64,000 nt of DNA from Eledone cirrhosa. Lineage: Eukaryota. The first letter of the stretch is position 1. Each line of letters begins with the position of its first letter. Shown here piece after piece: positions 1,235 to 63,026 of this stretch. Under the pieces are notes generated by a model, which was not told the origin of the DNA, ran no database searches, and was given only the letters and a program-made list of their open reading frames with translations. Where the stretch lies: assembly GCA_964016885.1 (NCBI GenBank), contig OZ024741.1, positions 366,048,001 through 366,112,000 on the forward strand. Reading direction: 5' to 3'. Position numbers and translations under genes: made by a program.

Positions 1235-1236
<2 letters not shown>

Positions 1237-1736
1237 TTCATTTCTCACTCTTAATACGGCACTTACTTACTATAATAATTTCGTTTCATTCTATTCCATT
1301 TATCGTTTTCGGTGTGCCCGGCCGACTGAACTCACTTGATATGCAAATTAGGCTGCTGAGCTGTTAATATGCATAAGGAAAGTATATACTTTCAGACGTT
1401 CAACTATCTGGCAGGAAGGTATACGATGCTGACGATAGCTAATAAGCTTGAAACTAGTACATCGTTCCTGTGTCAGTGTTGAACAAAAAGGTGACGTGGT
1501 TGCCTAAACACTGTACGGCGTATTCGGGCTGTTTGTTTGTTTACAAACAAACAAACCGAACATTATAATAAATGTTCGGTAAACCGATACGTGCATATAT
1601 ATATGTGTGCATGTATGTATATATATACATTCTACTGTACGTCTGTATACATATATGTATGCACGTATACATACATACTTATATTTAAGGAAGTGCCGTA
1701 CTAAGAGTGAGAAATGAAATTTCGTTTCATTCTATT

Positions 1737-1740
<4 letters not shown>
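1235..1740 (+). mobile_element. Family B hammerhead-bearing retrozyme/PLE-like element, 441-bp unit with terminal redundancy and 5' inverted piece
   Basis: aatttcgtttcattctattccat occurs at 1277 and 1718. 1235-1269 is the reverse complement of ~1686-1720. Flanked by (TA)n; homologous copy at 46466-47079. Confidence 0.75.
1423..1465 (+). ncRNA. Minimal type I hammerhead ribozyme
   Basis: acgatg-CTGACGA-t agct aata agct t-GAAAC-ta-GTA-catcgt: perfect 6-bp stem I, intact core, palindromic ACTAGT stem III. Confidence 0.85.
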
Positions 1741-1795
<55 letters not shown>

Positions 1796-8136: not shown

Positions 8137-10319
8137 TTCTAAACACTAACACATACCTTCACAACACATACACACACAGGCAGGCAGATAGACACAATAT
8201 AAAGTACATGTCATAAGATCTTTAGCTACATCTTTAAGAATGCTTTGCTATCATAAGATTTCGTAGTCGATCCAACTGGCTTATATTTTGGGCATCTGTA
8301 CTCTGACTTCGTGTCGACCTAAACCTTATAAGTAGAATTGGGTAGACGGAAACTATGTAGAAACCTATAGAATTGATTTTACCTGCAATTCAGACTTGTC
8401 ACACTGTGTTACACGGATACGGCTTGAGAATTACGTTTTGGGTACAGGTGTATGTGGAATACTCAACCATATACGCGTTAATTAACGTACTGGGCGTTCA
8501 GTTGATCGAACAACTGAAGACTCATTGTCCAAAGCGACGGAGCATCCGTATATTGAATTACTCAAATGATAGTCATAATTATTTGCAAGAAGTTGATAGT
8601 AACTATAACAAATTATTCACATGAATACGTAGTAGTAGAGGCAGCATGACTGAATGGTTTATGTTTCGCTTTATTCTCACTGCCTGACATCTTGAACAAG
8701 TGTAATTAATCATAGCCTCGGTCCGATCAAAACCTTGTCAGGGAACATGAGCGGACGGAAATTATTTGGAAGCTTCGTTGGATGAACTTTACCTACAATT
8801 CAAAGGGCCATCCTTGCCATACAGTGTGTCACGCTCAACCTCTCTGAGAGTTAGTTTAAAGGTACATGAATCTCTGAAATGGTCAGTAACTTGCACGTTA
8901 ATCTCATGAGTAGGCTGCTCCGTTGATTGAACAACTGGCATATACAGCTTTGAATCCGAATCCGAAAGAGGTCCATTTCAATAAGTACTAATCAAGTACT
9001 GGAGTCGATCGAAAAAGGCTGACTCCATATTTAAAATGTGTGGCCTTGCATCTAAGTTAGAAAGCAATCTAATATTTAGGTTTTTTCTTAAAGAAGTGGT
9101 AGCTGATGTTTCTGAGGATACTTGGCTATTTCAGCACCCTAGCCTCACTATCATCCGCGCCAATGGCGTTAATGTCTTAGCTTGACTTAGAAAGTCTTAG
9201 AGAGAAACACCAGCATTCTCTGTTTAACTGAGTGTGCATTTCTTTTGTTCATATTACTTTCCCTAAGATATTCATGAAATGGAATATATTATATATGCAT
9301 TAGAAACACACATTCGCACATGCCCCACTCCCATATAGATATCATTTTAAATAGAAATATAGATTGCTTGGAAATTGCTAAAATGGTTTTAAGCTGAATA
9401 TATTTAGTCTGCATAGATTCATCATATGTTTGTCATGTTGAACATACATTGTTACACATTCCACAGTGAATGAGATCAGTTTATTGTCTGTGGAGTTATC
9501 TTAGAAGTGCGTGGTAAAAATAGCTTAGAATAAATGTTATAAATAGTGTAACTAATTCTAAAAATAGTAGGAGAGTGTTGAAGTGACAATCTAGACAGTC
9601 TTAGCCATTCAATTTTAGTTTTCAATTTGGAAACTGTTCAGAAACAAAACTACTTAACACTTTCAGTGTGATATTTTTAATGAAAGACACAGCCTATGGT
9701 TTTCAAATCATATCGAAAATAATCAAAGATAACTAAATTTCTTATTATAAAGCTGGTGTTTCGAACACAAATGGACACATTTGCTTAGATGAAATTTTAA
9801 TGGAAGCTTTTTAGATACATATAAACACTTTAGAATCAACAGCATTATATTGTAGAACTAGATGAGCAGTCACGGGGTTTGGTATCAAAAAGATTGATAA
9901 GTTGTATTTTTCATTAAAATTAAAACCCGTGGCCAAATTTAATCATTAAGATAATGATGTTTCTTCTCACTATGTATGGAATTTTATTTAATTGAATTTA
10001 ACATTCTTTGGCTCACTATTATATTTCATAGATTCGACTTGATTACTTTTTAGGTATCTTTAAACCTGAATACATTATTATAACTCCTAATTGTCTTAAT
10101 GTAGATAAAGCAATAATCTTTTTTATATCATATTCAAAAATAGCACAAACACCAGACATAAACATAGTTATAATAGAAATAAATATAATAAATTCACAAA
10201 ACCTATTAATATATATCAAATGATTATAAAATCGAATTAATAATTTAGATAGTACAATTTGTTATATTAATGTGACATTGCGGTCGGAAGTTGACGAGTT
10301 TTGACTCATTATTATTAGA

Positions 10320-10512
10320 AGGGCGGTGGATTGGCAGTATCGGTAGAGGGTCGGACACCATGCTTTCCAGCATAGTTACGTCCCTTTACCATCTGAGTTC
10401 AAATCCCGCCGAGGTTGACTTTGCCTTTCATCCTTACGGGGTCGATAAAATAAAGTACCAGTAATGCACTGGTAATTGCTGGCCTTGTGCCTAAAGTAGA
10501 AACAATTATTAT
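10320..10512 (+). mobile_element. tRNA-derived SINE, abundant family
   Basis: A box tggcagtatcgg, B box gagttcaaatcc, conserved gcctttcatccttacggggtcgataaaataaagtaccag, (ATT)n tail. Confidence 0.85.
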
Positions 10513-11479: not shown

Positions 11480-12080
11480 AATAGTTCTACTTTCGGTACA
11501 AGGCCAGCAATTACACCAGTGCATTACTGGTACTTTATTTTATCGACGCCGTAAGGATGAAAGGCAAATTTAACCTCGGTGGGATTTGAACTCAGAACGT
11601 AAGGGGCCATAACTCTATGCTGTACAACATGGTGTCTGACGCTCTACCAATCCACCGCCATATGATTATTAATAAGGGTTTCTTATTTAGGCACAAGGCC
11701 AGAAATTTTAGAAGAGGGGGAAAACGATTAAATCGACCCGTGCGTGACAGGTACTTTATTTTATCGACCCTGTAAGGATGAAAAGCAAAGCTAATTCAGA
11801 ATGTAAAGGAACGTTTACGTTCTGAGTTCAAATCCCGTTAAAGTTAGCTTTGCCTTTCATCCTTGCGGGGTCGATAAAATAAAGTATCTGTAATGCATTG
11901 GAGTCGATTTTATCGACTTCACCCTCCCGCAAAATGACTGGCCTTGTGCATAAATCAGAAACCATTGTTATCACTATAGTTTCTAGTTTAGGCACTAGGC
12001 CAGGAATTGGCGGGAAAGTGTGTAACACCTAACTTGACTGGTACTTTATTGTATCAACCTCCGAAGAATAAAAAGCAAAA
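11480..12080. mobile_element. Cluster of four SINE copies or fragments (same family as 10320), including a back-to-back inverted pair
   Basis: The conserved SINE body occurs on minus at ~11480-11660, 11678-11810 and 11975-12075, and on plus at 11812-11970. Confidence 0.75.
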
Positions 12081-12970: not shown

Positions 12971-13339
12971 CTCACAAATAATTACTAATAATTTAGACAG
13001 AAAGTCCAACAATTTGGGGATACGGGTGGAATTTTTTTTATTTCATTTAACTGCAGTACTTTACTGGTATGTCATTTCATTCAAATTAAGTCTAGTTAAT
13101 TTCAATCACAGTTTGGTCTTGATAAAGACGCTTGCCCACGAAAACACTCTGTGAGATCGAATCTGAGACCTTATGTCTGCGGAGTAAAGGCCTTAAACAT
13201 CTGACCATGTGGTGTTCACATTGTAGCCTATGAGCTAGTCATGTAAGGCAGTTTATGGCCTCTATTTCAGGTACTTTGTTTAACCTATGAATACATTATA
13301 TAGGAGGACAGATAAGACTTCATTATATAGTGCATTATA

Positions 13340-13732
13340 AGGGCGATGGATTGGCAGTATCGGTAGAGAGTCGGACGCCATGCTTTGACGCATAGAGTTA
13401 CGGCCCTTGCCATTCTGAGTTCAAATCCCGCCGAGGTTAACTTTGCCTTTCATCCTTACGGGGTCGATAAAATAAAGTACCAGTAATGCACTGGAGTAAT
13501 TGATGGCCTTGTGCCAAAAGTAGAAACAATTATATAGTGCATTGGCGGTGGATTGGCAGTATCGGTAGAGGGTCGGATGCTATGCTTTGACGCATAGAGT
13601 TACGGCCCTTGCCATTCTGAGTTCAAATACCGCCGAGGTTAACTTTACCTTTCATCCTTACGGGGTCGATAAAATAAAGTACCAGTAATGCACTGGGTAA
13701 TTGCTGGCCTTGTGCCAAAAGTAGAAACAATT
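13340..13732 (+). mobile_element. Head-to-tail SINE dimer
   Basis: Near-identical copies at 13340-13532 and 13544-13732, bounded by ttatatagtgcatt present three times. Confidence 0.85.
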
Positions 13733-14230
13733 ATATAGTGCATTGAGGAGATTATTTATAGGATTTACATAATAGTAAAGGCTATAACAAGACTATAACA
13801 AGTGTTATTGTATTTAGCTGGTTCTGTAAGAAATCTAGTTCGTATTATTTAACGGATAATACACTTTATATAATTCTTGTAAAGTAAAACAAAGCTCTTG
13901 AGTTTTATTAGATGGTTCTTGGAGAAAACTAGCCTAGCTCATATTATTTGTCGGACATCATATTTGCTTTGATAAATAAGCAAATTCTCCTTTCATTAAT
14001 GACGCTTGAGTTAGTGAATAAATGTCAAGGATAGAGGTGGGTTTATTTGACATTCATTCCATGGAGGTGTTGTGGTACACACACCTATCACTATAAATAC
14101 AGAAAGATACGCAATAGCCAAGAGAATTTGTAAAGAGAGTAGGAGAGAAAGGAAAGAGACAGTGAGGGAGTTAGACAGATAGTGAGTGTGCAGGGGTTTG
14201 AGGAAAAATAGAAAGATAGATAGGTAGATA

Positions 14231-15209: not shown

Positions 15210-15291
<82 letters not shown>

Positions 15292-15323
15292 AGATCAAAA
15301 GATGGTTAAAGGAGTTCCATATA

Positions 15324-15390
15324 TTTTATTATGCGCATTTCAAAAACAAACATCATCAAGCAATAATATTTGTGTTTTCATCAGATAAAA
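15324..15390 (-). ncRNA. Minimal type I hammerhead ribozyme
   Basis: Minus strand: ttttat-CTGATGA-(long GU-rich stem II)-GAAA-tgcgca-TA-ataaaa, with palindromic ATGCGCAT stem III. Lies in an island between (TA)n tracts. Confidence 0.8.
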
Positions 15391-15498
15391 CAGGAGAACA
15401 TGATATGAAGGCTAAAAAACACTTGTGGATAGTGCAGTTTTAAATCAACATATCCGATATCTGCATTGCTTTATTGTACTACAATAAAACTCACCTCC

Positions 15499-15583
<85 letters not shown>

Positions 15584-17802: not shown

Positions 17803-17998
17803 GGAACAAGTAGGACCCCGACGGCTGAGCTCAAGCCGTTTCGACGGCTAATTCTGGATTCCAGAATTAGCCGTCGAAACGGCTTGAGCTCAGCCGTCGG
17901 GGTCCTACTTGTTCCTATTACCCACTCTACTACCCTAAGTATTGAGTACTTTGGTGCGTTATGGTCCATCTGGTTCCTTACCACATTTCCTTCGTTAT
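17803..17998 (+). mobile_element. Family A fold-back element, perfect 56-bp arms
   Basis: 17803-17858 / 17860-17915 form a perfect inverted repeat with a 1-nt centre, then the family A tail into (TA)n. Confidence 0.75.
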
Positions 17999-26451: not shown

Positions 26452-26653
26452 CGTAGAGCAAATATTTATTATAAGGACAGATTAAAGTTTAAGCAAATAT
26501 TCGCTGCTTTCACCCTTAACGGGATCTTCTGAAACTAAAAAAAATCAATCTGTGGACGAAGAAGTAAATATTTCTTTTAGTTTCAGAGGAACCCGTTAAG
26601 GGTGAAAGCAGCGAATATTTGCTTAAACTTTAATCTGTTCTTATAATAAATAT
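26447..26653 (-). mobile_element. Fold-back element with degenerate hammerhead 3' half
   Basis: Arms 26462-26540 / 26575-26653; accc gttaa gggt-GAAA hairpin; abuts (TA)n. Confidence 0.65.
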
Positions 26654-29050: not shown

Positions 29051-29389
29051 TTAGAATATAAATATTAATAAAATAGATGTTCTTTTGATCAATTACATTT
29101 TATTATACATATCTCGGATGTACAACAGTACGTCCTCATCAGACAAAATATAATTATATATGACATACCCTGAGATGTTAAATATATATATTATATGTTG
29201 TCTGATGAGGACGTACTGTTGTACATCCGAAATATGTATAATAAAATGTAATTGATCAAAAGAACATATATTTTATTAATATTTATATTCTAATATTAAT
29301 AACTCCGGAAAATTATTTTACCGTAGAGTGCTTCCAATCTACTGTAAAACTCATTCTTTGATATACTCATTGAATTTTGTTTAACTCTT

Positions 29390-35474: not shown

Positions 35475-35635
35475 TCGTTAAATTTGCTAAGGTAAGATTC
35501 TTTTGTTATCTTGGCAATTTAACATTCTCCATACGCATTGTGTTGGTCTTCAAAATTTATATTTGCGTTTCATATATATACATATATATGTGTGTGTGTA
35601 TATGTGTGTGTGTGTGTATGTGTATGTGTGTGTGT

Positions 35636-36057
35636 GTCTTGGGGAGGTAAAATTCCCGAGACCGATGGGCGAGTTCTCTCCAGCGGTCTCTGTCCCTCAT
35701 TATCGCTGCCATGTCTTGCGTCTCCAAGAGACCAGTGTCTGTCCTTAGGACATCAACATACGTTAACCTTGGTCTTCCTCTTCCAGTGTGTCCATGCAGG
35801 GGGCCCCGCAGGAGCACTGAGTGCAGAGTCAACTCTGGATGTCGGTGAGCATGTCCAGCTAAACTCAGTCTTCTCTGTGTCACTTTCAAGCTGACTTTTG
35901 GGAGAATCCCGTACAGCTCTGAGTTCTTCATCCTCAGTGTATACTGATTAATGTTCAGAGCCATCCTCAGCATTCTCGTGTAGCACCCATCCACCATCTG
36001 AGTGAGTTTCTTGGTCAGTGTCCAAGTCTCAGACCCGTACAGCAGCACAGACTCCAC
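35636..36057 (-). mobile_element. RTE/RTEX-type LINE 3' fragment (RT thumb / C-terminal region)
   Basis: ESVLLYGSETWTLTKKL...DGCYTRMLRMALNI...GRGRPRLTYVDVL..DR.RWR; 5'-truncated; flanked by (CA)n and (TAGA)n. Confidence 0.9.
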
Positions 36058-36058
36058 T

Positions 36059-36135
<77 letters not shown>

Positions 36136-36138
36136 GAG

Positions 36139-36225
<87 letters not shown>

Positions 36226-36228
<3 letters not shown>

Positions 36229-36390
36229 GGCTTCTATGGGACGAGAACAGGGATTATCTGATGTTTTCCTTCGAATGAAAGAGTTCTAGTCCTGTAGAAG
36301 CCATTTCTGTATTCTATTTTATATATACACTACTAATGTATTGAGTACCTTACTTATTGTGGTTATCCCCGATAGAACCCAGGACACTCA
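36226..36390 (+). mobile_element. Short element with degenerate hammerhead; related copy at 19371-19510 (-)
   Basis: ggattat-CTGATGT-tttccttcgaat-GAAA-gagt-TC-tagtcc. The downstream gtattgagta...ggttatccccgat matches the reverse complement of 19371-19480. Confidence 0.5.
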
Positions 36391-37469: not shown

Positions 37470-37521
<52 letters not shown>

Positions 37522-37552
37522 TAAAATAACAGATTAAATGTATTATTATTAC

Positions 37553-37652
<100 letters not shown>

Positions 37653-37663
37653 TATATAAATAC

Positions 37664-38195
37664 ATAAAATATTTAAAAAATAATGAATAAAACAATGAAA
37701 CAGTTCCTTATATTAAACAAAAAAAGTTCATTATTTAACGATCGTTTCTAGGACATATATGTGTTAGAATTGGCATGCATATTCAAAAGATCTATGTACA
37801 AAATTATACAAACTATCAAAGAGAATATACATACCATCACATATATATGCTGTCTTCATTATTTCTGAAGACAGCATATATATGTGATGGTATGTATATT
37901 CTCTTTGATAGTTTGTATAATTTTGTACATAGATCTTTTGAATATGCATGCCAATTCTAACACATATATGTCCTAGAAACGATCGTTAAATAATGAACTT
38001 TTTTTGTTTAATATAAGGAACTGTTTCATTGTTTTATTCATTATTTTTTTAATATTTTATCTTGACTCTGTATTCCGTTTATCTTTCACCGAAAGTGATT
38101 TTTGAATGCATCTCTTCTTTCCATGATATCCAGATTACATTGAGTTCTTCATACGGATTGGACACTACCGTAAACTTTTGGTAGATTTATCTATA
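37664..38195 (+). mobile_element. Young fold-back element with 195-bp inverted arms and ~135-nt unique tail
   Basis: 37664-37858 / 37866-38060 with one mismatch seen; 7-nt centre; (TA)n on both sides. Confidence 0.85.
37855..37997 (+). ncRNA. Type I hammerhead ribozyme with ~100-nt extended stem II
   Basis: ttcattattt-CTGAAGA-c ag catatatatgtg...cacatatatg tcct a-GAAAC-gatc-GTT-aaataatgaa: 10-bp stem I and palindromic ACGATCGT stem III. Confidence 0.8.
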
Positions 38196-38337
38196 TAAAT
38201 ACATATATATATATATATACATATATATATATCTATATCCAAAATTAAGATAGATTATATATGTATTTATAGATATATATATATAAATACATATATATTT
38301 ATTTATATATATATGTATTTATATATATATGTATATA

Positions 38338-38394
<57 letters not shown>

Positions 38395-39519
38395 CCATAT
38401 CACTCGAGGCAACAATAAGAAACCATTCGTTAAATTGTACTTCACACTAAATTTTCACACCCATAAACATCACTAATATGTCCAACACCAACCACTATTC
38501 TCACTAAAACCACAAACCTCTTTTACCATCGACCGTTGCTCCGAGCCCTCTCCATCAGCCACCGTCCTCATTTATGCAAATGATAAAAGTAACACAAAAT
38601 GTGATTTGCGGGAAGGGAATGTATAGGTAATAGTTAATTACACCGAGTTAATTGCATATCAGATGGCTTAGGGTAGTGCAATACCATCACATTTCAGACA
38701 CATTCTTTTACACACCCCAACACACACGCACACACAGACACGCACACACACACGAAAAAGGTATTTTAATGTATGTATGTTCTCATTGACACAAAGTCAC
38801 TGTTATATTCCTAAATCCATTATATTTGGATATTTGAAAAATCAAGTAATGTGTCCCCTAGAGACGGTAATTGGGGACAGAGATATCTACGAGATATCCC
38901 GCATCACTCCAATCTCAGATGCTACTGCACTAAAGAGACGCTGGCCACCTATCTTGTCTTTTTAGAAGAGATATTCGTAAAGTATTACACGTTGTATGCC
39001 TTCAAGATATGTGAAGTTTTCAGTTTTAGGTCTGAGCCCTGCATCTAAGAAATGAGAATGCTGTGAAAGAAATTGAGGAGTAACGATTCCTGTTAGTTGT
39101 TGAATTTATATCATGATACCCAAATAAGCCATGTATTATACGATGTCATAAAACCAATCAATTTGAGACGTCACTACTTGCGCAATTTTCATCACCTTGA
39201 CAACAATACCCAAAGAAAAGCATTTATAATGCTAATACTAAGAATAGCAATTTAAAAAAGCATTAATAAAGCCAACACGAAGAATAGCAATAAAAACAAT
39301 ATTAAAAATAAAAAAAAAAGAATTGTTCCCTAAGTTATAAGAGCCATGATAACATGAGCCAAAAAATAATCAAAAATGTTTCAATTTTATAAAGCTGCCT
39401 TTTGGGATTTGAAAATGGAAATTTCACTGTAAGGAAAATTAATATTTTATCCGATAACTTTTCTTTTGTCCTAAAAGGAAAAAGCAACAAACGAGTGATA
39501 ATCTTACAATAAATTAATA

Positions 39520-44118: not shown

Positions 44119-44121
<3 letters not shown>

Positions 44122-44624
44122 AGTAAGAATATTTTCGAAACAGCGAGTGGGTTTGAAATTATTAGAAATGTAAGCTATCGCCGTATTATGACTAAAGAAA
44201 TTAAAGAAATTATTTAGTCTGATAGTGGGGTTAAGAACCTTCGGAGAAATGGAAAAAGATGAGTATTGACGTACATGGGAGTCGAACCCACATCTTTGGT
44301 TATCCGGACCACTGTGCTACCATAATACGGCGATAGCTTACATTTCTAATAATTTCAAACCGACTCGCTGTTTCGAAAATATCCTTACTTGACATTACAG
44401 TCGCTAAGTTTATAGCTTCTAATTTGAATGGAAAGAGACGGGTGATGTGTTGGTGTAAATGGTAGCACAGTGGTCCGGATAACCAAAGATGTGGGTCCAA
44501 CTCCCATGTACGTCAATACTCATCTTTTTCCATTTCTCCGAGGGTTCTTAACCCCACTATCAGGCTAAAAAATTTCTTTAATTTCTTTCGTCAAAATACG
44601 GCGATAGCTTACATTTCTAATAAT
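44119..44624 (+). mobile_element. tRNA-containing fold-back element, 271-bp unit with terminal redundancy
   Basis: aatacggcgatagcttacatttctaataat occurs at 44324 and 44595. 44119-44323 is an inverted copy spanning the unit junction. (TA)n on both sides. Confidence 0.75.
44444..44515 (+). pseudogene. tRNA-like cloverleaf embedded in a repeat (not a canonical tRNA)
   Basis: 72 nt. Acceptor gatgtgt/gtacgtc, D arm gtgt-aaatggta-gcac, tggt-ccggata-acca, T arm gtggg/cccat (GTTCGAC loop in the mirror copy), TTTTT 10 nt downstream. Confidence 0.7.
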
Positions 44625-46465: not shown

Positions 46466-47075
46466 AAATATAAGTATGTATACGTACATATATATGTATA
46501 CAGACGTACAGTATGCATATACATATATGCACACACATATATATATATGTACGTATGGGTTTACCGAACATTTATTATAATGCTCAGTTTGTTTGTGAAC
46601 AAACAGCCCGAATTATTAGCCGTAGTGTTCGGCAACCATCGTTGCCATTTTGTTCAACACTGACAAAGAAACAATGAACTAGTTTCTAGCTTATTAGCTG
46701 TCATCAGCACCGTATACCTTCCTATTAGTTGATTGAACGTTTGAAAGTATATACTTTCCTTATGCATATTAACGCCTGAGCAGCCTAATTCGCATATCGA
46801 GTGAGTTAGTGGGCCGGGCGTACCGAAAACGATACATGAAAAAAATGAAATTTCATTTCTCACTCTTAGTACGGCTGATACTTAAATATAAGTATGTATA
46901 CGTACATACATATATGTAAACTCAAACGTACATATATATATATATATATATATGTGCATGTATGTATGTATATACACACTACTGTACGTCTGTATACATA
47001 TATCTATGTACGTTTACATACTTATATTTAAGTATCAGCCGTACGAAGAGTGAGAAATGAAATTTCATTTTTTCC

Positions 47076-47079
<4 letters not shown>
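46466..47079 (-). mobile_element. Family B element, second copy (418-bp period, different end points, inverted arm ~46955-47079)
   Basis: aaatataagtatgtatacgtacata occurs at 46466 and 46884; homologous to 1235-1740. Confidence 0.75.
46671..46713 (-). ncRNA. Minimal type I hammerhead ribozyme
   Basis: Minus strand: acggtg-CTGATGA-c agct aata agct a-GAAAC-ta-GTT-cattgt. Stem I changes relative to the 1423 copy retain G-U pairing. Confidence 0.8.
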
Positions 47080-47212: not shown

Positions 47213-47416
47213 GTTTATTCACTTGCTGTTGGGGTAAAGTAATCTAATAGCTTATATGTTTAAATAGAATTTGGAATACATGATGATGTTAATGGGAAAA
47301 AAATCTTGTAGGTTATTGTTTTCTGAAAATTATCCATCAGACATTTAGTGTTTGTCCGCTCAAACTCGAATAATTTCCGTTATTTTTAGTTTCTTTTCGT
47401 TCATGCTTTACATACG

Positions 47417-47981
47417 TTCTTCTTCTTCTTCTTCTTCTTCTTCTTCTTCTTCTTCTTCTTCTCCTTCTCCTTCTTCTTCTTCTTCTTCTTCTCCTTCTTC
47501 TTCTTCTTCTTCTTCTTCTTCTTCTTCTTCTTCTTCTTCTCCTTCTTCTTCTCCTTCTTCTTCTTCTTCTTCTTCTTCTTCTTCTCCTTCTTCTTCTTCT
47601 TCTTCTTCTCCTTCTTCTTCTTCTTCTTCTTCTTCTTCTTCTTCTTCTTCTTCTTCTTCTCCTTCTTCTTCTCCTTCTTCTTCTTCTTCTTCTTCTCCTT
47701 CTTCTTCTTCTTCTTCTTCTTCTCCTTCTTCTTCTTCTTCTTCTTCTTCTTCTTCTCCTTCTTCTTCTTCTTCTTCTTCTTCTTCTCCTTCTTCTTCTTC
47801 TTCTTCTTCTTCTCCTTCTCCTTCTCCTTCTTCTTCTTCTTCTTCTCCTTCTTCTTCTTCTTCTTCTTCTTCTCCTTCTTCTTCTTCTTCTCCTTCTTCT
47901 TCTTCTTCTTCTTCTTCTTCTCCTTCTTCTTCTTCTTCTTCTTCTTCTTCTTCTCCTTCTTCTTCTTCTTCTTCTTCTTCT
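47417..47981. repeat. (TTC)n/(GAA)n tract with GGA interruptions, ~565 bp
   Basis: Direct reading; abuts the 3' end of the RTE fragment. Confidence 0.95.
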
Positions 47982-49110
47982 CTCACTTATTCCTGGGAGA
48001 GCCGGGGAACAGATTCCTCAGACACAACATTCCAAAGTGTCCTATCAGACGAAACTGTCTCCACTTGATCCAGCTGTATCCCCAAACTAGACCAAACGCG
48101 CTCATGGATATTATGCAACCACCTTCATTCCTTAATCACCGAGCTATGTATCCTATAGTGTAACGTTAGCCAAATATCCTCCGGAGGAATCCCAAAATTC
48201 ATGACCATAGGTAATATTGGGATCTCCCTTTGTCTGGTGATAGAATCCTAAAGCTAGCACATTAAAGCATCAGCTACTGCAATTCTTGAATTTTATTCAG
48301 TTTCCTGATTTTCATCACTCTTGAAATCGATCCTGAGATACTTGAACTTGTCCACACACATTTAATGGAAATCCACTCCACTCCCAGCCAGACTGCATTA
48401 CACGGGTTTTCCTGAGAGAATCAGTATCATAGCCCTGGTTTTGGGTCATGCTAAGAAGGTCTCTGCAGAAGACTTATCCAGTGCTTGTCGGCGATCACCT
48501 TGCCGCAATTTAAGTAGGACTATGTCGTCTGCAAATCCCAGTCGACTATGTACTGGAGCTTGTTCATAGTGGAGAGCATATTACTAGAACAGAAGTTTAA
48601 TGAGGCACTTGCATACGCATTTAGATAGGGGTCGCCGTACCACATCATATGACCAGTACCAACATGTGCATTGATGTTTCCCATTCATATGACTCAGTCG
48701 CAATTATATTTAAAGCTGCAGTGACTTCATCAACGAAGGATTTGTATTCGGACTTGCTGTCTAACGCCTGACCTTGTACCACCCAGTCCATAACACATTC
48801 AGGCCGCCGAGAACCTGTGAGTATCCCTACTCCCACCTGTGCAGTCATTTCTGGCGCTACACATAAATAGTGGATTTCCAACCTTCAACCAAATATACGG
48901 TACCAGAGCCACAGAACTTTGATTAAGAAAACTCCGACTATATGTAGCCGCTAACATCTTACCTTCTCTAATTGTTGCTGCTCCTTACATACAAGGGATA
49001 TAACGTTCCAGTTACTAATTGTTAATGTTTTACTCTCGTCTGGTCTCTCTTTGGCGTCTCAGGATGCAAACGTTTGTATATCCATCCCACGCCTCCCATG
49101 ACATGTCGCA
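47982..49110 (-). mobile_element. Internally deleted RTE-clade LINE remnant (APE and RT traces)
   Basis: Traces WNV.SL, VGVGILT, EYKSFVDEV (APE) and VDKFKYL (RT); 3' end runs into (GAA)n. Confidence 0.7.
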
Positions 49111-51410: not shown

Positions 51411-51639
51411 TACATAGTCTATACAATGGAACTTACTAAACTACCTATATCTCTAATTAACTATAATATTTCGTGTCTAATTAAATAACAATTATCATTA
51501 TTAATGTTGCAATTCCAGTTTAGTTCCTCTATTACCGCCACAGTCATACCATCCAATGTTACCAATGTTAGAACTATTGTCAACCTAATCAGTTTCCTTC
51601 ATATTTCCTATCACCATAATTTCTAGCAGACCTAACACT

Positions 51640-52161
51640 ACCAACACTCACACGAGAACCAACACTCACACGAGAACCAACACTCACACGAGAACCAACA
51701 CTCACACGAGAACCAACACTCACACGAGAACCAACACTCACACGAGAACCAACACGCACACGAGAACCAACACTCACACGAGAACCAACACGCACACGAG
51801 AACCAACACTCACACGAGAACCAACACTCACACGAGAACCAACACTCACACGAGAACCAACACGCACACGAGAACCAACACGCACACGAGAACCAACACG
51901 CACACGAGAACCAACACGCACACGAGAACCAACACGCACACGAGAACCAACACTCACACGAGAACCAACACGCACACGAGAACCAACACTCACACGAGAA
52001 CCAACACGCACACGAGAACCAACACGCACACGAGAACCAACACTCACACGAGAACCAACACGCACACGAGAACCAACACGCACACGAGAACCAACACTCA
52101 CACGAGAACCAACACTCACACGAGAACCAACACTCACACGAGAACCAACACGCACACGAGA
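51640..52161. repeat. 18-bp minisatellite accaacac(t/g)cacacgaga x29
   Basis: 522 bp = 29 units; only one position varies. Confidence 0.95.
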
Positions 52162-54110
52162 ACCAACACCAACAAACACACCAACACCAACACACATACC
52201 ATCACTAACACACACACCAACACCAACACACATACCATCACCAACACACACACCAACATCAACAAACACACCAACACCAACAAACACACCATCACTAACA
52301 CACATACCATCACTAACACACATACCATCACCAACAAACACACCAACACCAACACACACACCATCACTAACACACACACCATCACCAACACACACACCAA
52401 CACCAACAAACACACCAACACCAACAAACACACCAACACCAACACACACACCATCACTAACACACATACCATCACCAACACACACACCAACACCAACACA
52501 CATACCAACACCAACACACACACCAACACCAACACACACACCAACACCAACAAACACACCAACACCAACAAACACACCAACACCAACACACATACCATCA
52601 CCAACACACATACCAACACCAACAAACACACCAACACCAACAAACACACCAACACCAACACACACACCATCACTAACACACATACCATCACTAACACACA
52701 CACCAACACCAACACACATACCATCACCAACACACACACCAACACCAACACACATACCATCACCAACACACACACCAACACCAACAAACACCAACACCAA
52801 CACACACACCATCACTAACACAAACCATCACTAACACACATACCAACACACATACCATCACCAACACACACACCAACACCAACACACACACCATCACTAA
52901 CACAAACCATCACTAACACACACACCAACAGACATACCATCACCAACACACACACCAACACCAACACACACAACACCAACACACACACCATCACTAACAC
53001 ACATACCATCACTAACACACATACCATCACTAACACACTCCATCATTAACACACACACCAGCACCAAAACACACGTCGTCAATAACACACACCAACACGC
53101 ACAGCATCACTAACACACATCAACTCCTACACACATACATATACCATCACACTCACGCACACACACCAGTTCCTACATACATACATAGATACATACACCA
53201 ACACACACACACACAGACACCAACTGCTACACACATACATACACCATCACACACCGACTCCTCCACACATACATACACCAACACATACACACACAGACAC
53301 ACACCAACTCTTACACACATACAAACACCAACGCCAACACACACACACACCAACTCCTACACATACATACGCCAACGAACACACACCATTACCAACTCCT
53401 ACACACATACTTACACCATCACACACACACACACCAACCTTCATACACACACATACACCAACACACACACCAACCACCAACACCAACTCTGACGCCATCC
53501 TCATTAATATCGACATCCTCATCACAAATACCAACACCAACACACACACATAACAATACCAACACCTACACACACATACCAATACCAATACCTACACCTA
53601 CACATACATACCAGCACCAACACCTACACATACATACCAACACCAACACATACACACATACATACCAACACCAACACCTACACATACATACCAACACCAA
53701 CACCTACACACACACATACCAACACCTACACATACATACCAACACCAACACCTACACACACACATACCAACACCTACACATACATACCAACGCCAACACA
53801 CACACGTACATACTAACACCAACACCAACACACACACACATACATACCAACGCCAACATACATCAACACTTACACACCTACAAATCCCAGTACACACACT
53901 CACATCAAACAACATCACCAACACCTTCATTTACAAACACAGAAACAGCAACTCCTATACACACACACACACCACTACCTACGCCAACACCAACACACGC
54001 ACACCAACACCTACACACATACATACACCAACATACACACACACACACACCATCACCTACACACATACATACACTAACACACACACCATCACCCACACAC
54101 ACACACTAAA
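52162..54110. repeat. Degenerate CA-rich tandem array (18-bp period decaying to low complexity)
   Basis: accaacaccaacacacac / accatcactaacacacat units with increasing divergence rightwards. Confidence 0.85.
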
Positions 54111-61174: not shown

Positions 61175-62680
61175 ATTCTTCTGGTTTTATAATTTCACAA
61201 ATTTTTACCAATAGAGAGAGAGTCGGTTTCTAACATAGACACAAGACTCTCTCATTAGAATTTACACAACATCAACTAGGTAGATTATGTATGTATGCAT
61301 GCATGCATGTGTAGATATGAATGTTATTGCATGTGTGGATGTGTATCTTTTGAGTTGTATGTGTGCATGTGTATATGCTTTGCATCTGTACATGTGTATA
61401 TGCAGATATTAGATGCAACATTTCTGGAATGTTTTACATATTTTTACTGTTCCATTAATTGATTGTACTTGTAATTTCCTAACTAGTTGTGTTCTTTTTG
61501 TTCCTGTGAAGCCTAGCGTCTCAAGATTTGTATTGAGGCAGTTACTAACATACGCCAGTGCCCCAATAATCACAGGCATACATCTGAAGGTGTAATCAGG
61601 GTGGAGTATCTGCAGATTTCTCATCAGTTCTGCATAAATATTCTCCTTTTCACTAATCTTGGCATCTGCTGGGCAGCTAATTTCCACTACTGTGCATGCT
61701 TTCTTCTCCCTGTCCCATATCATAATATCTGGTCTGTTATGCCTGCATTTTATTGGGGTTTTTACTGGAACATTCCACCAGTACTCTTTCATATTATGTA
61801 CATGGATGTCTTCCACATTGCTGTAGCTTTTAATGTGTTTATTATCGGGGCTATATTTTTACGAACTGCATTGTACAGTGTTTTGGCCACTACATCATGC
61901 CTCATAGGTAGATAGTACCGTGATGACATTTTTGGACAGCTTTTGATGACATGGGTGATATCCTCGATGTTAGTTCTGCAGAGTCTGCACTTGTTATCAC
62001 ATCTAGGTGTTTTGCCTGCATCCCTATCTCTTTTGTGAATCAGGTATTTCGTGTTAATCTCCAGTTCTTGGATTGCAAAAGCGTATCCTTCAAAGTGGGA
62101 GCCAATATAGCGGTTGTTGGTCCAATATAGACTACTTTCCTTATCTATATTACTCTCACTCTGAGAGTAATATAGATAAGGAATTTTTTGCTGATATGTT
62201 TTTCATCCATGGATTCACTGCGATACTGCTGAGCGACTTCTCTGGGTGTGAGATTTTGATTATCACACAGGGAATATCTCTCGAGGAGTTACTTCCCAAC
62301 TCTCATGATCTTATCTGTTTCATGCAGCGAGAAACGGGTTCCTACGCTTTGAGGTTCGTAGATGTTGTCGGAGAGCTATGATGCGACATTCAAATGTTGT
62401 CTGGACTGATGTTAGGCCTCTGCCTCCCTGCTTACGTTTCAAGTAAAGGCGGTCTATGTCACTGTTGATGTGAAAGTTTCCGGTGTTGTTTAGTATTTTT
62501 GAGTTCCAACATCAACTGCTCGGATTTCGTTTATCGTCCAATTGAGTATTCCAAACGTTGGTGTTAGGACAGGCACAGCAAACACATTGTGAGCTACTGT
62601 TTCGTTTTGCGCAGAGAGTTCCGATAACCAGATCTTTCTTAATCGGGTGTAGTATTCCCTGGGTACCCTTTCTTTATTAC
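61175..62680 (-). mobile_element. R4/Dong-clade non-LTR retrotransposon, 5'-truncated, in (ATGT)n
   Basis: CRLC..EDITHVIKSC..RHDVVAK zinc knuckle; HNRPDIMIWDREKKACTVVEISCP..KENIYAEL..PVIIGAL RLE domain (ORF 61409-61816); 3' UTR down to 61175. Confidence 0.9.
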
Positions 62681-62702
62681 AGTATGTATGTATGTATGTA
62701 TG

Positions 62703-62733
<31 letters not shown>

Positions 62734-62759
62734 GAATCTATGAAGTAAGAATTTATGTA

Positions 62760-63026
62760 TGTTCTTCTGGTTTGATCATTTTATAAATTTTTACCAATGA
62801 TAATTTTATAAATTTTTACCAATAGAGAGAGTTGGTTTCTAACATGAATACAAGATTCTCTCATTGGAATTTAAACATGCATCCATGTGTGTGCAGGTAT
62901 GGATGTTTTTGTATGTGTGGATGTGGATGTTTTTACTTATATATGTGCATGTTCATATGCTCTTTATCTGTACATGTGTACATGGAGTTATTAGATACAG
63001 AATTTTTGGAATGTTTTAAACATTTC
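62760..63026 (-). mobile_element. Second, very short 3' fragment of the same R4/Dong family
   Basis: Matches 61177-61440 (ttcttctggttt...ttagat..gaatgtttta); (ATGT)n on both sides. Confidence 0.8.

Follow-up and report, generated by a model that had tools for sequence, protein, structure and literature searches.

The accessible sections of two reports describe the features by which the insertions of Penelope-like elements (PLEs) are recognised: inverted, 5'-truncated copies and a bias for (TA)n targets characterise the group (PMC8557442), and inverted pLTRs at PLE 5' ends have been documented, with a 15-bp overlap between the inverted and the direct copy in Pen2a_Av, target-site duplications (TSDs) of 8-10 bp, and self-priming as the proposed route (PMC3846280). 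The pLTRs carry type I hammerheads with a palindromic helix III and low activity even as dimers, according to the available text of PMC4209133, and both this paper and the portion at hand of PMC3088659 call the G10.1-C11.1 pair highly conserved. By our own count of the 56 hammerheads in Fig. S3 of PMC4209133, 24 have U17, all three mollusc rows included, the longest stem II is 23 nt, and the D. willistoni row shows U.U followed by A-U and G-C. The PLE hammerhead descriptor of the same study accepts a helix II of 3-7 bp and a loop of 3-10 nt (PMC4209133). U.U at the base of helix II is also recorded in the available part of PMC3088659, and an axolotl hammerhead with U.U at this position cleaves, as stated in the accessible text of PMC7229834. 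For the anole PLE, the accessible part of PMC11167929 describes an AT-rich insertion made from uncleaved RNA, with reverse transcription starting ~90 nt downstream of the ribozyme cut, and a ribozyme that requires its protein in vitro. The excerpts at hand further review the dimer cleavage of hammerheads (PMC6765202), derive retrozymes from PLEs (preprint 10.64898/2026.07.22.740005), and use 'long helix II' for 6-8 bp in viral hammerheads (PMC13725137). Hammerhead searches accept long insertions that fold as hairpins, according to the available text of PMC10085705, so that there is some precedent for long inserts in general. The accessible part of one genome study counts, for Octopus vulgaris, 336 Penelope-like insertions with recent activity and makes no mention of hammerheads (PMC13282606), and that of another lists 235 Rfam hammerheads in the giant squid (PMC6962438). 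The literature that we searched, mostly non-subscription, described neither a PLE hammerhead whose stem II approaches 100 nt nor any PLE hammerhead from octopuses, and we met no tested case of C.A at the base of helix II.

Here, we analyse a locus in a 64,000-nt stretch of Eledone cirrhosa DNA, referred to below as the window. We consider it probable that a 528-bp head-to-head palindromic insert lies here in (TA)n, that it was made by fold-back during PLE-type reverse transcription, and that it bears a type I hammerhead with a 104-nt stem II. The initial annotation of this DNA did not name the element class; the architecture is that of the published inverted-pLTR end of PLEs. Such palindromes, and hammerheads in Penelope repeats, have already been published, and the size of stem II is what is new. 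The insert and its borders consist of the following parts:

37653..37666, plus strand: possible target-site duplication, left copy; ends the (TA)n tract, last 3 nt inside the left arm
37664..37858, minus strand: left arm, copy of 37866-38060 in inverted orientation; hammerhead present from U4 on, C3 and the stem I 5' strand missing
37855..37869, plus strand: apex, 15 bp common to the inverted and direct copy; 4-nt stem, 7-nt spacer, 4-nt stem
37866..38060, plus strand: right arm, direct copy, from self-comparison of the window
38061..38191, plus strand: unique 3' extension of the direct copy, 131 bp; single copy in the window, ends at (TA)n
38192..38205, plus strand: possible target-site duplication, right copy; then (TA)n to ~38392

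The two arms (37664-37858 and 37866-38060) are 195 nt each and identical at 194 of 195 positions, the single difference sitting at the end of a T run. They are separated by a 7-nt spacer (37859-37865), which places the symmetry centre at 37862. Near-perfect 195-bp arms with an inversion point immediately at the CTGAAGA core had been proposed before, and both descriptions hold: U4 of the core is the first base of the right arm, and the centre lies 3 nt upstream of C3. In an ungapped census of the window (arms >60 nt), this palindrome ranks first for arm identity. An arm divergence of 1/195 corresponds to a 95% interval of 0.01-2.8%. Conversion can homogenise palindrome arms, and in view of this and of the wide interval, arm identity is a soft clock. 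The earlier reading of recent activity can therefore be kept in the form that 37664-38191 is likely a recent insertion, which the arm identity fits.

Beyond the right arm, the sequence from 38061 to ~38191 is unpaired and unique, and its end is likely where reverse transcription began. At the other end of the direct copy, the 37855-37869 apex is likely the fold-back point, although a cDNA end would fold into the apex mini-hairpin only marginally (-0.2 kcal/mol). (TA)n adjoins both ends of the insert, with the right-hand tract reaching ~38392. The 14-mer found at 37653 and 38192 shares 3 nt of microhomology with the outer end of the left arm and is a possible 14-bp target-site duplication; it can be no firmer than that because the 14-mer is of low complexity and occurs five times in the window, also at 38280 (plus strand) and at 38325 and 41761 (minus strand), four of the five falling at the palindrome locus. 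No tandem repeat, direct repeat or terminal redundancy was detected in 37664-38191, and the terminal inverted repeats at both insert ends that would mark a MITE or fold-back element are absent, 38061-38191 having no inverted partner. The search for further copies that the initial annotation had proposed gave none: there was no second copy of the insert within the window (blastn with word size 7, and a pattern search with three mismatches), and no exact match in bacterial and archaeal genome contigs, which is a weak test for animal DNA.

The hammerhead motif spans the centre of the palindrome and is composed as follows:

37855..37997, plus strand: type I hammerhead ribozyme motif, 143 nt, from fold and motif null
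37855..37864, plus strand: stem I 5' strand, pairs with 37988-37997 by 10 Watson-Crick pairs
37865..37871, plus strand: catalytic box C3-A9 (CUGAAGA), from sequence
37872..37975, plus strand: stem II, 104 nt, predicted fold
37976..37987, plus strand: G12-A15.1 box (GAAA 37976-37979), stem III and predicted cleavage site
37988..37997, plus strand: stem I 3' strand, predicted pairing

Of the characteristics of a type I hammerhead, the CUGANGA box, G12-A13-A14, the A15.1-U16.1 pair and an NUH triplet are present. In the predicted fold, three helices close the core, which is open at stem I. Stem III (37979-37986) is the perfect 8-nt palindrome that had been anticipated; it has two pairs and a tetraloop, and its self-duplex is predicted at -10.0 kcal/mol. 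The cut is predicted after U17 (U37987; H17 of a GUU triplet), with U37986 as U16.1. The G10.1-C11.1 pair is absent, its place being taken by a C37872.A37975 mismatch. Folding of 37855-37997, the check suggested in the initial annotation, gave a minimum free energy (MFE) of -39.3 kcal/mol (z -5.28, none of 200 shuffles as low), against -28.8 kcal/mol (z -2.87) for the reverse complement, and the fold constrained to the hammerhead lies 2.3 kcal/mol above the MFE. A descriptor scan of the window returned six rows at five cores, of which four cores qualify (stem I of at least 6 bp and stem II closure of at least 0.8); none of 300 block-wise dinucleotide shuffles of the window holds a qualifying motif. 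A second, 219-nt register at 37865 and a core at +63216 were dropped from the scan (stem II closure 0.42), as was a row at -6988, which lacks stem III and stem I. A simple gap pattern that ignores pairing was non-discriminating (three matches versus 0.71 expected). Taken as a model, the 143-nt hammerhead would be predicted to self-cleave.

The relation between inversion point and ribozyme is less strict than had been proposed. No CTGANGA is present on the minus strand across 37664-38200, and the minus strand lacks C3 and stem I, so that in sequence the complete motif indeed exists on the plus strand only; any plus-strand transcript entering via the left arm, however, is predicted to fold into the 195-bp hairpin, in which neither stem I nor stem II forms. 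The link between inversion point and core is not shown to be special: a second hammerhead palindrome in the window (29052-29292) inverts ~30 nt upstream of its core and keeps the motif in both arms, and a family that has no ribozyme inverts at a preferred site of its own. Likewise, the 10-bp stem I does consist of ten Watson-Crick pairs, of which only six use spacer bases; the outer four use 37855-37858, which are also bases of the inverted arm. Their fit to the core and to the 3' strand suggests that these four pairs are native and were used as the turn-back point. Ribozyme cleavage as the maker of the inversion point was rejected, since 125 nt separate the cut at 37987 from the apex. The insert runs uninterrupted through the predicted cleavage site.

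Stem II is a structured hairpin and not a loop, with 36 predicted pairs covering 72 of its 104 nt. Helix IIa (37873-37886/37961-37974) has 12 Watson-Crick pairs, one G-U and one C.C; helix IIb (37888-37901/37940-37953) has 12 Watson-Crick pairs and two G-U; and helix IIc (37907-37909/37933-37935 and 37914-37919/37924-37929) contains one G-U. The hammerhead with a ~100-nt stem II reported at the palindrome centre is thereby borne out in length (37872-37975), and the motif null supports it. Its description as a closed stem around a long AU-rich insert needs amendment, since the insert is a 36-pair extension and the base of the stem is the C.A mismatch, with the C.C at the fourth position also near the core. 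There is no canonical short loop 2 in 37855-37997. The length of stem II is the sole outstanding feature of the motif, as the GUU site and the basal mismatch have PLE precedents. An intron beginning in stem II (donor-like 37890; acceptor-like 37911 or 38133) is speculative and gave no useful ORF.

The pairing of stem II is a prediction from the fold of one copy. The same insertion route could have carried a stem II that is a neutral scar, left by an older fold-back or by a TA/TG-rich expansion in loop 2, in a family whose stem II is normally short and whose ribozyme is here dead or barely active. Fold-backs are frequent in this DNA, where masked self-BLAST found 16 self-palindromes in the window, many of them bordered by (TA)n; stem IIa resembles a TA repeat; the C.A and C.C mismatches lie beside the core; and the window holds no second copy. 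Moreover, stable 104-nt hairpins are common here, as 161 of 2458 segments of that length fold at least as stably as stem II. Stem II nevertheless folds at -34.2 kcal/mol on the plus strand versus -21.3 on the minus strand (z -5.3; 0/500 shuffles), and helix IIb with the inner part at -23.8 versus -9.1, which argues against such a scar. All four wobbles are G-U on the ribozyme strand with no internal A.C, in the same direction, a bias that is not significant on its own (4/4, p = 0.06; 4/5 with the basal C.A, p = 0.19). The core, GAAA, the stem III palindrome and U16 are intact despite stem II arms that have diverged at six positions and contain internal loops, and an intermediate, 36-nt stem II exists at -15384. 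Taken together, we regard a neutral scar as possible but rather unlikely, and the strand asymmetry, as far as the folding model goes, may point to selection on the RNA.

The expectation that standard models would miss this motif was correct. Rfam gave no hammerhead at the gathering score in the whole window, and none of clan CL00010 at E up to 10 in 37500-38400 and 37855-38060; Rfam microRNA matches at the palindrome were rejected, as none reached the cut-off and all are due to the hairpin. The miss is not confined to the long-stem motif, because two other hammerheads in the window are missed too: that at 29202, with a 20-nt stem II, gave no Rfam match, and that at 1429 reached 17.6 bits against a cut-off of 52. 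The published PLE descriptor would also miss the 37865 motif, whose 104-nt stem II exceeds its limits.

Four hammerhead families were found in the window, the three others having stem II lengths of 14, 20 and 36 nt, a palindromic or near-palindromic stem III, and a position in (TA)n-flanked inserts. The cores at +1429 and -46707 belong to one family (stem II 14 nt), whose units 1236-1741 (plus strand) and 46466-47077 (minus strand) are 83% identical over 407 bp and show terminal redundancy and an inverted 5' segment; the stem II loop and the stem are otherwise conserved, and the units are retrozyme-like. The -46707 hammerhead has in common with the 37865 motif U17 and a C.A base of stem II topped by an A-U and a G-C pair, and its sister at +1429 has U.U at the stem II base. 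The odd stem II base therefore looks like a local family trait and not like decay. The second hammerhead palindrome (29052-29292; region to 29391) has its centre near 29172 and cores at +29202 and -29142. Its arms are 91% identical in a gapped self-alignment, so that it is older; it is (TA)n-flanked, with a right arm ~100 bp longer. The 29202 hammerhead, which the strict scan missed and which was found by inspection, has the canonical G10.1-C11.1, a stem II of 20 nt and a stem I of up to 12 bp. The third is a short (TA)n-flanked insert on the minus strand (15287-15502, core 15384), a type I hammerhead with A17, a stem I of 8 bp, the extended 36-nt stem II and a palindromic stem III. Alignment of six window hammerheads was uninformative, since the families are unrelated outside the core. 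Separately, the palindrome 26462-26653 may hold a decayed hammerhead in both arms, with U4 changed, a short G-C stem II, and GAAA.

Inversions also occur in a ribozyme-free, (TA)n-targeting family of eight copies of 100-190 bp, here called family F:

982, 15623, 16538, 17803, 31882, 35078, 36454, 36642: copies of family F, no hammerhead

Four of the eight copies invert within ~10 nt of one site, two further downstream and two not at all, and the copy at 17803-17915 has arms identical at 56 of 56 positions. Inversion sites can thus be family-specific, and inversion at the hammerhead core is not a rule, given the site of family F and that of 29052-29292. Where the native sequence is visible, the inversion points of family F show little or no microhomology, so that a 4-bp snap-back is not required.

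For the insert at 37664-38191, the following course of events would account for the observations. A PLE endonuclease would nick the (TA)n target, and reverse transcription would start at ~38191 on a template that may be an uncleaved or re-ligated pLTR- or retrozyme-type RNA. The enzyme would copy the whole ribozyme and stop at the stem I 5' strand, the new strand would turn back at the 15-bp apex with recopying of 195 nt, and the free end would join the target by the 3-nt TA-type microhomology, possibly leaving the 14-bp duplication. cDNA fold-back and antisense-RNA self-priming would leave identical sequence. The architecture supports a PLE-type route, as PLE insertions are described as typically combining, like this one, a 5'-truncated inverted copy with a direct copy that reaches further at its 3' end, in (TA)n surroundings.

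The donor might have been a non-autonomous circular non-LTR retrozyme monomer of at least ~340 nt that used PLE enzymes in trans, which would refine the PLE-type fold-back reading more than oppose it. With 337 bp of AT-rich, non-coding sequence, the direct copy comes close to the 330-390-bp mussel and axolotl monomers, and its two-pair stem III with tetraloop is as in the 'invertebrate' retrozyme hammerheads, both according to the available text of PMC7229834. The window family 1284-1686/46466-46850 shows the unit-length terminal redundancy of such units, and the accessible part of a preprint (10.64898/2026.07.22.740005) argues for a PLE origin of retrozymes. The insert itself is a single unit that lacks tandem repeats or terminal redundancy, unlike the retrozyme arrays of ~150-400-bp units that each bear a type I hammerhead, and for this locus we hold a retrozyme donor to be a doubtful, though reasonable, option. 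More speculative, and in our view unlikely, is an active Penelope-type or retrozyme family with a conserved ~36-bp stem II under selection that is invisible to Rfam and to the descriptors in print, in which the arm and an anti-stem-I hairpin set a short co-transcriptional interval for cleavage and the 5' edge of the ribozyme is the site of reverse transcriptase stalling and fold-back; this would imply a large hidden class with stem II lengths from 14 to >100 nt in one genome.

It is very improbable that the palindrome arose later at the DNA level, by replication template switching or repair at (TA)n or as a fold-back or MITE-type element, beside an older hammerhead relic. (TA)n tracts are fragile and self-complementary, and the arms of 37664-38060 resemble each other much more closely than do those of most other window palindromes, as such an origin would allow; the unequal arms and the absence of terminal inverted repeats at the two insert ends, the recurrence of the layout of short inverted and long direct copy with (TA)n borders in unrelated window families, and the shared inversion site in half of the family F copies all argue against it. 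A fold-back chimeric read or other library or assembly artefact, to which near-identical arms differing only at the end of a T run could give rise, is hardly credible, as the arm ends exactly at the (TA)n border with a TSD-like repeat and the window is full of older palindromes of the same layout that have diverged (67-92% in gapped self-alignment).

Under the preferred PLE-type fold-back reading, the ribozyme of the parent element and the present copy are predicted to behave differently. For transcripts 37664-38191 or 37800-38191, a long hairpin is predicted and the probabilities of stem I and stem II are below 1e-21. The copy is thus likely inactive in place, as the 195-bp hairpin predicted for read-through RNA would abolish the ribozyme fold; the copy is likely a dead-on-arrival fragment, at most a source of dsRNA. 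A further element lies downstream of the motif:

38025..38046, plus strand: stem I 5' strand repeated twice in near tandem, the first time (38025-38034) with one change, the second (38037-38046) exactly

Upon transcription, the 38025-38034 repeat is predicted to sequester the 3' strand of stem I: the probability of stem I is 0.98 for an RNA that ends at 37997, but 0.87 if the end is at 38025 and 0.001 if it is at 38035. For the parent element, the prediction is a cut after U37987 that is probably slow and most efficient in a dimer formed via the palindromic stem III, within an interval of ~30 nt before the downstream hairpin takes stem I. Because of this hairpin, the model predicts that cleavage would be co-transcriptional or protein-aided. 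The anti-stem-I hairpin has a z of -2.7 (10 of 500 shuffles) and is not clearly common to the other window hammerheads; in the tests of the 29202 right arm and of 46707, stem I was unformed.

The window is AT-rich (22-45% GC per 2 kb), with many microsatellites and short repeats. Among the 150 of 174 complexity-filtered ORFs searched with Pfam, there was no PLE reverse transcriptase (RT) or GIY-YIG match and no evident host gene, and the one match was an unrelated, mitochondrial-type fragment (10046-10261, minus strand; PF00361, NADH dehydrogenase membrane subunit, E 5.8e-10), which probably derives from mitochondrial DNA copied into the nucleus. No RT or GIY-YIG ORF is present within the insert, and its most open frame on the plus strand (37977-38195, two TGA stops being read as X) has no relative among 1.84 billion representatives or among longer proteins. 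As no RT-EN ORF is linked to it, the insert could belong to PLEs at most as a non-coding fragment or passenger. Several other repeats were observed. Nested inverted repeats at 44119-44622, (TA)n-flanked, surround a tRNA-like sequence (Rfam tRNA 38.1 bits, 44444-44515) and probably represent a SINE of tRNA origin trapped by a fold-back insertion. Broken non-LTR retrotransposon remnants, with families named from translations, lie on the minus strand at 35557-36285 and 61409-62780; 61789-62199 matches zf-RVT at E 0.0066, and the sole named relative of the LINE-like remnant 61409-61855 (one of nine matches) is a predicted Octopus bimaculoides protein with 59% identity. A high-copy, SINE-like dispersed repeat of ~200 bp occurs at 10319-10509 and ~20 related places, sometimes in tandem (13322-13745) or inverted (11670-11970), and long simple-sequence arrays with strong strand skew (TCT-type, ACACCA-type) occupy 47400-48000 and 51600-54100.

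If other copies conserve stem II and cleavage occurs, the natural limits of the hammerhead would be wider than current descriptors assume, and hammerhead counts in invertebrate genomes would be underestimates, considering that this 64-kb window holds four families and that Rfam finds none at its cut-offs. Should the long stem occur in this copy only, the insert would be an ordinary young PLE-type fragment. The locus also provides a clean junction for the question of how PLEs form inverted ends, by cDNA fold-back or by antisense-RNA self-priming, and it agrees with the in vitro finding of uncleaved RNA as template.

A long insertion that splits the two halves of the core, as in the 37865 motif, also occurs in the discontinuous mammalian Clec2 hammerheads; these are type III, reside in mRNA 3' UTRs, carry the insertion in stem I, and are not known to be linked to PLEs. 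Chrysovirus and other viral hammerheads are closer in type, being active type I ribozymes with an extended helix II and no evident loop-loop contact, according to the available text of PMC13725137, which gives a helix II of 6-8 bp and a helix III stable as a monomer, versus 36 pairs and a dimer-type helix III here. The mussel and axolotl retrozymes, as far as the accessible part of PMC7229834 describes them, resemble the insert in that a type I hammerhead lies in an AT-rich unit of ~330-390 bp that does not code for protein, in the two-pair helix III with tetraloop, and in a mismatch at the helix II base, which is U.U in HHR_Amex2, a hammerhead that cleaves, better as a dimer. In contrast to these retrozymes, the insert is not tandem, has an inverted arm, and lacks the canonical short helix II for a loop 1-loop 2 contact. 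The layout of the insert is most like that of PLEs, with the head-to-head truncated inverted and direct copies and 15-bp apex overlap of Pen2a_Av from Adineta vaga (accessible sections of PMC3846280), and the AT-rich or (TA)n target, short TSD and one longer end of Penelope/Poseidon, Neptune and Naiad elements (available text of PMC8557442). Since Naiads lack canonical hammerheads, a Neptune, Penelope/Poseidon, Nematis or Hydra type would be expected. Compared with EN+ PLEs, the insert has no ORF or second pLTR, a 131-bp one-sided extension, which may be a tail or reflect truncation of the inverted arm, where they have a 30-40-bp tail, and a possible TSD of 14 bp instead of 8-10 bp. The hammerhead itself finds its nearest counterparts in the PLE variants of Drosophila, Aedes, rotifer and shrimp, which, in the accessible text of PMC4209133, are likewise type I with CUGANGA and GAAA, a palindromic helix III, frequent U17, a mismatched or additional base where helix II begins, and AU-rich flanks. 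It differs from them in having C.A in place of G10.1-C11.1 and a stem I of 6-10 bp where theirs is mostly 2-6 bp (same text of PMC4209133), and above all in its stem II, which at 104 nt with 36 predicted pairs is about four times as long as the longest (23 nt) among the 56 PLE examples (PMC4209133).
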